Part shown: positions 35,930 through 39,706 of the stretch, one piece after another
Position numbering within the stretch: position 1 is the stretch's first letter
How the letters are laid out: each line of letters begins with the position of its first letter
Origin: Escherichia phage mEp043
Direction: 5' to 3' (one strand)
DNA length: 42,880 nt
Sequence record: PV340537
The notes under the pieces: generated by a model
The model's input: only the letters and a program-made list of their open reading frames with translations
Databases searched by the model: none
What the model was told of the DNA's origin: nothing
Program-made: the position numbers and the translations under genes

Positions 35930-38900
35930 ATGGGTGAAAAAATGCAGCTTCTTAAACAAGAAACCATCCTGCAGGGTGCCAAAGGGGGAGGTGGCAGTTC
36001 ACATACTCCTGTTGAGCAGCCTGACGATCTGTTGTCGGTCGCAAAATTAAAAATGCTCATTGCCGTTTCTGAGGGGGAAATACAGGGCGACCTGACCGCT
36101 CAGAATATTTTTCTCAACGATACGCCGCTGGCAAACGACAGCGGGGAATACAACTTCAGCGGCGTGAAATGGGAGTTCCGCAAGGGCACACAGGACCAGA
36201 CCTATATTGCCGGGATGCCCCAGGTCGACAACGAGCTGGCCGTGGGCACAACTGTCACCACCACCGCGCCCTGGACGCGCCAGTTTACAAACCTTTCCCT
36301 GGATGCCATCCGTATCAAGCTCAGCCTTCCGGTCCAGTATCTCTATAAAGATAATGGCGATATGGTGGGCACGGTCACCGAGTATGCGATCGATTTATCA
36401 ACGGACGGCGGCGCCTGGAAAACGGTTGTAAACGGCAAGTTTGACGGAAAGACCAAGACGGAATATCAGCGTGACCACCGTATCGATCTGCCAAAATCCA
36501 CGTCCGGCTGGTCTGTCAGGGTCAGGCGTATTACGGCTGATGCCAGCGGATCAAATTCGAAACTGGTTAACGCCTTCAAGGTGTTTTCGTATGCGGAAGT
36601 CATCGACAGCAAGCTTCGTTATCCTTTAACAGCGCTCCTGTATGTCGAAGTGGACAGCAGCCAATTCAACGGCAGCGCGCCGAAAGTGACCTGTAAGATA
36701 AAAGGCAAGCTGATTAAGGTTCCGGATAATTACGATCCGAAAACCCGAACCTATTCTGGTTCATGGTCCGGCGGGTTCAAAATGGCATGGTCCAATAACC
36801 CTGCCTGGATCTTTTACGATCTGGTTCTGGATGAAATTTACGGCATGGGCACGCGCGTGGATGCGTCCATGGTGGATAAGTGGGCGCTGTATTCAATCGC
36901 CCAGTACTGTGACGAAATGGTTTCCGACGGGGCCGGTGGCACCGAACCGCGTTTCACCTGCAACGTTTTCATTCAGAGCCAGGAGGACGCCTGGCAGGTA
37001 CTTAACGATCTCGCCGCGGTATTTCGTGGAATAACGTTCTGGGGCAACGATCAGATTTATGTCCAGGCAGACGTCCCGCAGGACGATGTTGACTGGGTTT
37101 ATAACGTCTCAAACGTTATCGATGGGCTGTTTACTTATGCGGGCGGCTCATACAAGAATCGCTACAGCTCCTGCCTGGTGTCCTGGTCCGATCCGCAGAA
37201 TCATTACAGCGATACCGTTGAGGGGGTCTACGATTCGGCGCTGGTAGAGCGTTACGACGTCCGGCAGACGTCCCTGACCGCAATCGGCTGCACCTCGCAA
37301 AGTGAAGCGCACCGGCGCGGTCGCTGGGTATTACTCTCCAATGCCAAAGACGGCACCGTATCGTTTGGCGTGGGGTTGGACGGTTATATCCCTTTGCCCG
37401 CTGAAATTATCGGTGTCGCCGATCCTTTCCGTTCTGGTAAGGAGAACGGGGGCCGCATAAGCGCGGTCAACGGCCGCCAGATTACCCTTGATCGAGAAAT
37501 AGACTACGCGGCGAAAGACCGGCTGGTGGTTAACCTTCCCGACGGAAAAGCCCAGACGCGGACAATCAGCGCGGTGAGCGCCGATAAAAAAACGGTGACG
37601 GTGGCTACGGCATTCAGTCAGGTTCCTGTGGCTGGCGCTGTCTGGGCGATAGACAGTGATAACCTCGCAATACAGTACTTCAGGGTCACCTCAATCGCGG
37701 CTAACGACGACAGCACAGGCGGTTTCACTATTACGGCCGTTCAGCACGATCCAAACAAATATCGTTACATCGATGACGGCGTTCGGGTCGAGTCTCCCCC
37801 GATCACCGTCACGCCGATAAGCGTCCTGTCTGCTCCGAAGAATATCGTGGTGACTGAGAGCGATCATGTGTCTCAGGGGCTGACTGTAGCAAGCCTGGAC
37901 GTGTCATGGGATAAGGTAGAGGGCGCAATCCGGTATGTTGCCCAGTGGCGTAAGGACAACGGGGACTGGATAAACGTTCCGGTTACCAGCGCGCAGGGTT
38001 TCTCGGTTCAGGGCATTTATTCGGGCAGCTATGACGTGCGCGTACGGGCACTGAATGCGCAGGATACGTCGTCACCATGGGGATACGGTGAAACAACTTA
38101 TCTCTCCGGTAAAACGGGAAAACCGGGTACTCCGCTCAACTTCCTGGCGACCGAAGATGTGGTCTGGCATATCGACCTGACATGGAAATTTCCGGATGGC
38201 TCAGGCGACACGGCCTATACAGAGATTCAGCGCGCCACAACTGCCGACTACGCCAATCCTGAACTGCTGGTCCTGGTGCCGTACCCGGCTGCAGATTATC
38301 AGCATGGCCCCATGCCTGCCGGCGTTCGCCAGTGGTACCGCGCGCGCCTGATTGACCGTATCGGTAACGCCGGGGACTGGACCGACTGGATCATGGGCAC
38401 GTCCTCGATAGATGTCAGCGAAATAACCAATGACATTCTGGAGGATATGAAAGAGTCGGAAACGTTCAAAGACCTGATCGAGAACGCGGTGGACAGCAAC
38501 GAAAAAATTGCTGGCATGGCTAACGATATCAAACAGGCTAACGACGAACTGGAGCAGCAAGCGAAAGATATCGCCAAAAATGCCCAGGACGTAGGGAAGG
38601 TTCAGACCAGCGTTAATGAGCTTTCCAGCACGGTCGGGAATGTTTCGTCTTCACTCAGTCAGCTTGAGCAGACCGTTGCGACGGCTGATACCGCCCTGGG
38701 CCAGCGAATCGACAACATCAGCGTTTCTATGGACGGCATGACGGGCGGGGTGAAGAACTCTGCAATTGCGATAATCCAGGCCAACCTCGCTCAGGTGGCC
38801 ACGCGTAAAACCCTTTCTGCATCGGTCGCCGGCAACAGCGCGAATCTGGACCGTATTGATGAGGTGATTGTCAACGACAGGGAGGCAACGGCGCGCTCGC

Positions 38901-39706
38901 TGCTGAGCCTGCAGACGGACGTTAACGGCAACAAGGCATCCATAAACAGCCTGAATCAGACGTTCTCCGACTATCAGCAGGCAACGGCGCGCTCGCTGCT
39001 GAGCCTGCAGACGGACGTTAACGGCAACAAGGCATCCATAAACAGCCTGAATCAGACGTTCTCCGACTATCAGCAGGCAACGGCGCGCTCGCTGCTGAGC
39101 CTGCAGACGGACGTTAACGGCAACAAGGCATCCATAAACAGCCTGAATCAGACGTTCTCCGACTATCAGCAGGCAACGGCCACGCAGATAAACGGCATCA
39201 CGGCGACCGTGAACGGGCATACCTCAGCCATCACCACTAATGCTCAGGCGATAGCCAACGTTAATGGCGACCTCAGCGCGATGTATAACATCAAGGTTGG
39301 CGTAACCAGTAACGGGCAGTATTACGCTGCCGGGATGGGGATTGGGGTTCAGAATACACCCTCCGGCATGCAGTCACAGGTAATATTCCTGGCCGACCGA
39401 TTTGCTGTTACCACTGCTGCCGGAAACAGCGTGGCGTTACCATTTGTGATCCAGAATGGTCAGACGTTCATCAGGGCCAGCTTCATTCAGGACGGTACCA
39501 TTGAGAACGCCAAAATCGGTAACTATATCCAGTCGAATAACTATGTGGCTGGCTCTGCAGGCTGGAAACTTGATAAGGGGGGCACCTGGGAAAACTGCGG
39601 CAGCGACGGTCAGGGAGCAAGAAAATCCACCAATGTCACTGACAGTATCAGGGATTCAAATGGCGTGCTCCGCGTGCAAATCGGCAAACTTACAGGGGTG
39701 TTTTGA
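35930..39706 (+). CDS. J: Host specificity / central tail fibre protein J (1258 aa) with internal tandem repeats
   Basis: Size and position; fibronectin-like middle; C-terminal receptor-binding region differs from lambda. Confidence 0.9.
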   Translation: MGEKMQLLKQETILQGAKGGGGSSHTPVEQPDDLLSVAKLKMLIAVSEGEIQGDLTAQNIFLNDTPLANDSGEYNFSGVKWEFRKGTQDQTYIAGMPQVDNELAVGTTVTTTAPWTRQFTNLSLDAIRIKLSLPVQYLYKDNGDMVGTVTEYAIDLSTDGGAWKTVVNGKFDGKTKTEYQRDHRIDLPKSTSGWSVRVRRITADASGSNSKLVNAFKVFSYAEVIDSKLRYPLTALLYVEVDSSQFNGSAPKVTCKIKGKLIKVPDNYDPKTRTYSGSWSGGFKMAWSNNPAWIFYDLVLDEIYGMGTRVDASMVDKWALYSIAQYCDEMVSDGAGGTEPRFTCNVFIQSQEDAWQVLNDLAAVFRGITFWGNDQIYVQADVPQDDVDWVYNVSNVIDGLFTYAGGSYKNRYSSCLVSWSDPQNHYSDTVEGVYDSALVERYDVRQTSLTAIGCTSQSEAHRRGRWVLLSNAKDGTVSFGVGLDGYIPLPAEIIGVADPFRSGKENGGRISAVNGRQITLDREIDYAAKDRLVVNLPDGKAQTRTISAVSADKKTVTVATAFSQVPVAGAVWAIDSDNLAIQYFRVTSIAANDDSTGGFTITAVQHDPNKYRYIDDGVRVESPPITVTPISVLSAPKNIVVTESDHVSQGLTVASLDVSWDKVEGAIRYVAQWRKDNGDWINVPVTSAQGFSVQGIYSGSYDVRVRALNAQDTSSPWGYGETTYLSGKTGKPGTPLNFLATEDVVWHIDLTWKFPDGSGDTAYTEIQRATTADYANPELLVLVPYPAADYQHGPMPAGVRQWYRARLIDRIGNAGDWTDWIMGTSSIDVSEITNDILEDMKESETFKDLIENAVDSNEKIAGMANDIKQANDELEQQAKDIAKNAQDVGKVQTSVNELSSTVGNVSSSLSQLEQTVATADTALGQRIDNISVSMDGMTGGVKNSAIAIIQANLAQVATRKTLSASVAGNSANLDRIDEVIVNDREATARSLLSLQTDVNGNKASINSLNQTFSDYQQATARSLLSLQTDVNGNKASINSLNQTFSDYQQATARSLLSLQTDVNGNKASINSLNQTFSDYQQATATQINGITATVNGHTSAITTNAQAIANVNGDLSAMYNIKVGVTSNGQYYAAGMGIGVQNTPSGMQSQVIFLADRFAVTTAAGNSVALPFVIQNGQTFIRASFIQDGTIENAKIGNYIQSNNYVAGSAGWKLDKGGTWENCGSDGQGARKSTNVTDSIRDSNGVLRVQIGKLTGVF
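38885..39172 (+). repeat. Three perfect tandem copies of a 96-bp (32-aa) unit inside J
   Basis: Copies at 38885-38980, 38981-39076, 39077-39172, identical at nucleotide level; partial fourth copy begins 39173. Confidence 0.9.

Follow-up and report, generated by a model that had tools for sequence, protein, structure and literature searches.

Does the central tail fibre gene of Escherichia phage mEp043 carry a tandem repeat that has grown very recently, and what does each repeat unit add to the fibre? The question is raised by the sequence record PV340537, analysed here as a whole (42,880 nucleotides, hereafter the window), in which gene J, coding for the central tail fibre or tip attachment protein (TipJ), includes three perfect copies of a 96-bp unit. 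The copies, reported at 38885-39172 in a first-pass annotation made from the letters alone, are confirmed by both Tandem Repeats Finder and direct reading of the sequence. The program returns a single array at 38883..39180 (period 96, 3.1 copies, 100% matches, 0% indels, score 596). Within the J open reading frame (ORF; 35930..39706, + strand) the three units are codon-aligned and identical, zero substitutions being counted among them, and are translated as three times ATARSLLSLQTDVNGNKASINSLNQTFSDYQQ, residues 986-1081 of the protein. With 288 perfectly periodic bases a chance origin is ruled out, as is a low-complexity artefact, periodicity being 100% over 298 bp. On balance, the feature is probably a genuine and very recent in-frame tandem expansion in the J gene of mEp043. 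The array and its borders are made of the following elements:

38789..38884 (+), older 32-residue module preceding the array, residues 954-985; AQVATRKTLSA in forward and ANLDRIDEVIV in reverse orientation (motif scan)
38883..38892 (+), left border microhomology AGGCAACGGC; 2+8 = 10 bp common to both borders
38885..38980 (+), repeat copy 1, residues 986-1017; forward motif ATARSLLSLQT, reverse motif ASINSLNQTFS
38981..39076 (+), repeat copy 2, residues 1018-1049; 100% identical to copy 1
39077..39172 (+), repeat copy 3, residues 1050-1081; a hairpin in the structural model built on the diverse alignment described below
39171..39180 (+), right border microhomology AGGCAACGGC; the stretch taken earlier for a partial fourth copy
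39173..39268 (+), older paralogous module after the array, residues 1082-1113; ATATQINGITA in forward orientation, then SAITTNAQAIA

The partial fourth copy that had been placed at 39173 dissolves on inspection. Only 8 bases (GCAACGGC; 10 with the preceding AG) are shared with the repeat unit, and they form the start of the next module, which opens with ATATQINGITATVNGH, is identical to the unit at 8 of 32 residues by direct reading, and is anciently diverged. GCAACGGC at 39173 marks the microhomology of the duplication border, not an incipient copy. The AG dinucleotide followed by GCAACGGC makes up 10 bp shared by the unit borders in the mEp043 lineage; 4-5 bp are shared in single-copy relatives. 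Targeted diversification, of the diversity-generating retroelement (DGR) type or other, is ruled out by the identity of the copies. A contingency-type switch of expression or reading frame does not fit either: 96 bp correspond to 32 codons, and the reading frame is kept whatever the copy number.

The window is the complete genome of the lambdoid phage mEp043. It is 100% identical to the earlier record JQ182734.1 over all 42,780 bp, the sole difference being the one extra 96-bp unit. Window positions 1..20723 correspond to record positions 22058..42780, and position 20724 onwards to record position 1 onwards; the lengths reconcile as 42,880 = 42,780 + 96 + 4. The window is in prophage (integrase-first) order and opens inside the annotated thrW-type attachment site (JQ182734 22032-22079), and the same 4 bases are found at 1-4 and 42877-42880, as a terminal overlap. 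In a megablast of J versus phage records, mEp043 c-1 and mEp213 are matched at 100% identity, over 3681 record bases versus 3777 of the query. The J genes of these two (AFM76432.1) carry the same unit and are identical in nucleotides over the whole gene, but hold two copies (3681 nt, 1226 residues) where the window holds three (3777 nt, 1258 residues). One copy of the unit is missing from JQ182734, JQ182733 and PV340538, each of which has two; mEp213 shows two both in the 2012 record and in the 2025 re-sequencing, PV340538. Two versus three copies are thus known from two records of an otherwise identical genome. No paper describing the re-sequencing or the repeat was found in the literature on mEp phages; the three-copy allele is new, and the two-copy repeat is already in GenBank, unremarked. 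The genomes of mEp043 and mEp213 are 99.96-100% identical in the late/tail region (16835-42880) and differ in much of the immunity/replication region (8133-16835), a pattern of classic lambdoid mosaicism; the duplicated J allele is part of the tail module common to both.

The third copy may be an assembly artefact, the true phage having two copies and the assembler having passed the repeat loop once too often. The caution, voiced already in the first-pass annotation, stands, given the two copies in the earlier record of mEp043. The third copy comes from one assembly, three other records of the identical array are two-copy, and the window departs from JQ182734 in nothing besides the extra unit. 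As calculated from the coordinates, k-mers recur within an array of 96n+10 bp at any k not exceeding 96(n-1)+10, so a three-copy array cannot be counted with reads shorter than ~300 nt. On the other hand, in a true two-copy array (202 bp with the shared border) no k-mer longer than 106 occurs twice, hence there is no loop to over-traverse at large k or in long-read assembly. The identical array of mEp213 was re-sequenced as two copies (PV340538), which argues that there is no systematic inflation, and the shaft does vary in copy number among complete E. coli genomes, with a 288-bp unit present once, twice or four times. We hold an artefact to be rather unlikely.

A genuine expansion agrees with the distribution of the unit among relatives. 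One copy is the usual state, as in HK97, Eeyore, Nissle 1917, UPEC85 and EC2001 (one unit each, 90-95% nucleotide identity). HK97 gp24 (J), the prophage J proteins of Nissle 1917, UPEC85 and EC2001, and Eeyore J share the shaft architecture and the 32-residue unit with mEp043, and those of HK97, Nissle and EC2001 end in a different, longer C-terminal extension. The comparison with J of related prophages, proposed at first pass as a check, shows the close relatives to be single-copy and this expansion to be confined to the mEp043/mEp213 lineage. Exactly one unit is present in 94 of the 120 best protein-database matches of J, and a tandem array in none of the 120, also with a stricter detector; the detector applied to them recovered the known arrays in distant relatives as well. 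Among the best 80 of 489 IMG/VR loci, only the mEp213 contig has the repeat. When a 901-bp query was compared with 5,426 complete E. coli genomes, 36 covered at least 80% of it, most within ~709 bp, which is 192 bp short; no complete E. coli genome matched the whole query at mEp043-level identity, and the sole record at 99% or above covers bases 1-197. A degenerate DNA pattern for the copy-to-copy boundary YQQ/ATARSLL was found once in IMG/VR, in mEp213, and 0 times in 185,579 species-representative genomes and in the metagenome collection. From the junction and survey results, the step from one to two copies is private to the mEp043/mEp213 tail module, and the step from two to three private to the window. 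The expansion had been called recent or ongoing, and this description is borne out by the zero substitutions, by the genome otherwise identical to JQ182734, and by a junction seen elsewhere only in mEp213.

Shaft length varies among relatives in other ways too. In phi80, LLS and Flotzy J, the 16-residue QENADGLAQAEVKIDE takes the place of the 48-residue AKNAQDVGKVQ...TALGQRIDN of HK97, Eeyore and mEp043, so that shaft lengths differ by 32 residues even without recent repeats. Many of the 120 J homologues in the protein database are annotated as partial and lie on 2-4 kb contigs; the J gene evidently often breaks draft assemblies, probably since several prophages per genome share J.

How did the array arise? 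Duplications made by slipped-strand or template-switch events are usually recognised by a short direct repeat at the ends of the segment, and where two perfect 96-bp copies are present, unequal recombination or slippage readily gains or loses units. The 10-bp border microhomology accordingly points to slippage or unequal recombination as the likely mechanism. A first duplication would have used two 10-bp direct repeats (AGGCAACGGC), spaced 96 bp apart, and given the two-copy allele of mEp043/mEp213; the third copy would then have come from these two perfect ones, through mispairing of slipped strands or unequal recombination. The gain of the third copy may have been aided by the phage's own Erf recombinase, and the copy probably became fixed when the phage passed through a bottleneck of one genome, for example during plaque purification or the making of a lysogen. 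Two genes that may have taken part are annotated in JQ182734 and lie in the window as follows:

5910-6515 (-), Erf-type annealing protein
5210-5503 (-), Abc2

What the unit is in the protein can be read from its place in the fibre:

35930..39706 (+), gene J, central tail fibre / tip attachment protein (TipJ), 1258 residues; identified by Pfam and homologues
38414..39226 (+), shaft of the central fibre, residues ~829-1099; coiled-coil-like, between the FNIII domains and the C-terminal domain
39227..39640 (+), C-terminal Phage_Tail_Tip (DUF1983) domain, presumed receptor-binding end; Pfam E=6e-49

The array ends 18 residues before the Phage_Tail_Tip domain. Hydrophobic residues recur with a period of 3.48-3.54 residues across J ~829-1099, as is typical of coiled coils. 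Core positions of the unit (6, 9, 13, 20, 23, 27, 30) describe four heptads plus a four-residue stutter, that is nine turns in 32 residues (32/9 = 3.56 residues per turn). The initial proposal that the array lengthens the J shaft near the receptor-binding end is upheld by this 3.5-residue periodicity, by a predicted helix and by the 18-residue distance. In the single-copy shafts of HK97 and phi80, residue-class autocorrelation has its peaks at lags of 32 and 64; the shaft is therefore an ancient construction of 32-residue modules.

Modules of this size are also found in a pyocin fibre that changes fold. The closest solved homologues of J are T1 gp33 (PDB 9l9p_S, E=8e-292) and the F2-pyocin tail fibre (25vf_A, E=7e-280). 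The latter was aligned over residues 14-1228, and the C-terminal 435 residues of J alone match at E=2.6e-28, so that homology to the F-pyocin central fibre protein (CFP) extends to its last ~400 residues. The F7-pyocin central fibre includes a 163-residue trimeric coiled coil which, when a cell is contacted, refolds as a beta-prism (He et al., bioRxiv 2026, PMC12874032), and killing is abolished when the conversion is blocked (PMC12874032). Each prism strand carries the motif SxSxxMxxLxS, the direction of which tracks the strand (PMC12874032). A similar switch has been predicted for 21 of 24 siphophage fibres, coliphages HK639 and mEp390 included (PMC12874032); HK97, phi80, N15 and repeats are not mentioned in the main text of that paper (PMC12874032). 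Scanning of J for SxSxxMxxLxS yielded exact matches alternating in forward and reverse orientation every 15-17 residues:

residue 954, forward, AQVATRKTLSA
residue 971, reverse, ANLDRIDEVIV
residues 986 / 1018 / 1050, forward, ATARSLLSLQT
residues 1003 / 1035 / 1067, reverse, ASINSLNQTFS
residue 1082, forward, ATATQINGITA

When only one copy of the unit is kept, the five alternating matches form a chain reached by 0 of 5000 shuffles. The repeat unit begins with the first residue of one forward strand and stops right before the following forward strand starts, and hence equals exactly one hairpin. The pyocin module ATAQRLDQLSASIGGT-AASLQSEQTARANADS aligns with it residue for residue. F-type pyocin fibres (F7 CFP, PMC12874032; F2 PyoF10, PDB 25vf/25vj/26ci, PMC13455828) are full-length homologues of J. 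They have an alpha-helical trimeric shaft ahead of a beta-prism C-terminus and 32-residue modules with SxSxxMxxLxS in alternating orientation, like the J repeat. They differ in that their modules are diverged, whereas the mEp043 copies are identical, in lacking a Phage_Tail_Tip-type FhuA-binding end, and in having side fibres anchored on the shaft.

Two monomer models were made with AlphaFold2 (AF2), one on a shallow alignment of 65 close homologues, the other on a diverse alignment of 78 sequences. In the shallow model J is helical at 829-928, 941-957 and 973-1088, with strands after the last helix, which continues through the repeats; the predicted local distance difference test score (pLDDT) over the three copies is 79-89. 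The periodicity, helix 973-1088 and the strands that follow amount to a coiled-coil stretch placed before a short non-switching beta-prism seed, the layout expected of fold-switching central fibres. The diverse model is a beta-meander (mean pLDDT 84.8). Here copy 3 is made of strands 1049-1062 and 1065-1077 with a turn at N-G (pLDDT 80-96), the following module of strands 1081-1094 and 1097-1110 (pLDDT 94-98), and the preceding module (residues 954-985) of two beta-strands as well. In these monomer predictions the same 32-residue unit thus comes out as helix or as hairpin according to alignment depth, which resembles the behaviour described by He et al. Foldseek of the beta model against the PDB gave significant matches only to lambda gpJ central-fibre chains (template modelling (TM) score 0.24-0.28) and to no pyocin post-ejection chain; low TM scores are expected for a monomeric meander lifted from a trimer. 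By analogy with the pyocins, the repeat unit is one module of a probably fold-switching shaft, a reading which is new for mEp043, where the switch itself is presumed from kinship.

Several points weigh against this interpretation of the array. The switch has been demonstrated only for the pyocin, and lambda and T5 do not show it (PMC12874032). Both AF2 models are monomeric, and alignment depth accounts in part for the two states: the diverse model lacks alignment columns for copies 1 and 2, which it renders as low-confidence helices (pLDDT 46-73). If the shaft is already a beta-prism in the virion, each copy would add only ~1 nm. Lastly, shaft arrays with periods of 44, 122, 28 and 37 residues exist in distant relatives, and quantisation by modules is a tendency, not a rule.

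The tendency is seen in several fibres. In T1 gp33, a 99-bp unit (33 residues, x2.2, 97% identity) is duplicated at the equivalent place of the shaft; the repeat lies at 13810-14030 of the T1 locus (L095), and its unit is EVIATETEALSREIDQLKAQIGDDIQASLTDIR. T1 uses FhuA and provides the closest solved homologue, the C-terminus of which (821-1172) was left unresolved through flexibility; the word 'repeat' is absent from the main text of the T1 structure paper. Differing from the mEp043 array in unit sequence and length, and made of copies already diverged, the T1 duplication is an independent event. In E. coli prophage fibres, a 288-bp unit (96 residues, six strands = three hairpins) which contains the 96-bp unit of mEp043 is found x4.0 in ET245 and 21AR0133 and x2.0 in ARL09/232, with 96-99% identity, and x1 in ES5. 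These arrays lie at 1056-2202 (ET245, L006), 649-1796 (21AR0133, L009) and 1725-2296 (ARL09/232, L096), and the J-like proteins of ET245 and 21AR0133 measure ~1,610-1,620 residues. The latter two also carry a separate 126-bp repeat (42 residues, six heptads, x1.8) in the N-terminal part of the shaft (L006 845-1073, L009 438-666), upstream of the motif-bearing modules. In a survey of distant relatives, 1.84 billion cluster representatives were searched, and recent tandem arrays (19 in all) were found in 17 of the 149 new relatives among the matches listed. The period is 32 or 33 residues in 8 of the 19, mostly with a pair of motifs in forward and reverse orientation; the remaining arrays have periods of 44 (three arrays), 122 (two), 209, 70, 37, 28, 20 and 10 residues. 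Module-sized duplications have thus arisen several times independently, and the mEp043 array is a fresh instance of the process by which such shafts were built.

Whether such a change matters to the phage is a separate issue. The expansion may be real and yet functionally neutral: a polymorphism produced by slippage in a spacer that tolerates it, and then fixed as the phage went through a bottleneck in the laboratory. The match between unit and module would mean only that insertions had to be non-lethal. Nothing but the extra unit separates the genome from the two-copy record, the duplicated allele is confined to a single lineage of laboratory phages, and fibres with one copy are the norm and evidently sufficient. 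Nothing directly opposes this account, which shares its origin with the explanation that we prefer and differs from it on consequence only. Recurrent expansions (the 96-residue unit in up to four copies in prophages; T1) nevertheless show that longer shafts persist in nature, and a coevolution experiment selected tail-fibre tandem duplications in another phage (PMC6365445). Neutrality is quite possible, though we would put it somewhat short of an even chance.

The experiment concerns Enterococcus phage EfV12-phi1, in which in-frame tandem duplications in the tail fibre appeared in all four coevolution lines and never in controls (PMC6365445). Like the mEp043 array, these vary in copy number, lie just upstream of the receptor-binding part of the fibre and arose on laboratory time-scales; unlike it, the unit is 1.8 kb long, the fibre is the long tail fibre of a myovirus, the protein is unrelated to J, and the duplications were selected in coevolution (PMC6365445). 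It is the only experimental precedent that we found for selected tail-fibre tandem duplications (PMC6365445).

Pfam domains recognised in J are FNIII-A_GpJ (residues 99-226, E=1e-41), Phage-tail_3 (350-513, E=5e-13) and Phage_Tail_Tip (1100-1237). Over residues 20-630, the N-terminal hub only, J is matched by lambda gpJ (8iyk_J) at E=3e-125; hub and FNIII domain place J among the lambda-J/TipJ proteins. Phage_tail_L and Lambda_tail_I lie upstream, J following M, L, K and I in the tail operon order, in agreement with the annotation of JQ182734 and PV340538; genes near J are L, I, and those for the side tail fibre and the side tail fibre assembly protein. The C-terminus of J aligns with those of T1 gp33 (the alignment covers 949-1171) and phi80 J, and ends in the Phage_Tail_Tip domain of the FhuA-dependent, cor-linked J proteins (T1/phi80/N15/HK022 type). 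Downstream, phrog_557, phrog_425 and phrog_1119 (Cor) follow in the same order as in T1 and phi80, the last being:

40794..41027 (+), cor, superinfection-exclusion lipoprotein; phrog_1119, E=7e-37, Cor also annotated in JQ182734

Given cor downstream and a C-terminus like those of T1 and phi80, the receptor of mEp043 is probably FhuA. A longer fibre might then carry the C-terminal domain to FhuA through lipopolysaccharide (LPS) or capsule, the host surface selecting copy number. The array stands immediately before the receptor-binding domain, cor and the T1/phi80-like C-terminus point to FhuA, and the EfV12-phi1 duplications were found in all four coevolution lines, never in controls (PMC6365445). 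Such adaptive reach is nonetheless quite improbable. K-12 is listed as the host of sister records, and since K-12 is rough, no obvious selective pressure for a longer fibre can be named; the allele is absent from environmental data in the junction pattern searches.

For a genuine expansion by whole modules, some consequences for the fibre can be sketched. In the helical form each copy would add about 32 x 1.5 Å = 4.8 nm, or about nine turns; in the prism form, where each copy would be one beta-hairpin, about 2 x 4.8 Å = 1 nm. Insertion of a whole hairpin would leave the trimeric coiled coil in approximately the same heptad-like register, and the strands of the antiparallel prism sheets would run in unchanged direction. 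The putative FhuA-binding domain at the C-terminus would in this way stay correctly oriented, so that alleles with extra modules should be viable. Each copy would lengthen the fibre before infection and, if the switch operates in mEp043, the stroke of the switch as well. Taken to its limit, the repeat would be one quantum (a hairpin, or nine turns) of a metastable coiled-coil 'spring', and mEp043 would change the number of quanta on laboratory time-scales by slippage, which as a whole we regard as unlikely. If true, the one-, two- and three-copy alleles (HK97-like, mEp213/mEp043 c-1, and the window) would constitute a near-isogenic series for fold-switch tests in a phage. Should the mechanism hold in HK97/T1-type phages, natural alleles with one, two or three extra modules, and in prophages many, would offer a simple genetic handle for probing how shaft length bears on adsorption, triggering and DNA ejection in non-contractile tails. 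Taken alone, the repeat is a small, ordinary length polymorphism in a well-known phage gene. As the only difference between two sequencings of one phage, it is either a warning about repeat resolution in phage assemblies or a very recent structural mutation, observed directly, in an organelle of receptor recognition.

Minor features surround the array. Directly after J are two small genes, at 39703-40008 (+), phrog_557, 'outer membrane protein', and at 40008-40682 (+), phrog_425, 'membrane associated protein', both conserved in T1, phi80, N15 and HK022. A sequence match in the PDB linking them to PyoF11/PyoF12 was not found; the two (39703-40682) may correspond to these fibre-tip proteins, phage homologues of which are reported by He et al. 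(PMC12874032). For RNA elements in the repeat or its surroundings, Rfam at E<=1 yielded nothing beyond a sub-threshold match to a small nucleolar RNA (snoRNA), which lies outside the repeat at 39836-39898. On the opposite strand, an ORF of 189 residues (38651..39220, -) spans the repeat and belongs to no PHROG family; rather than a gene, it is probably a stop-free frame multiplied by the repeat.

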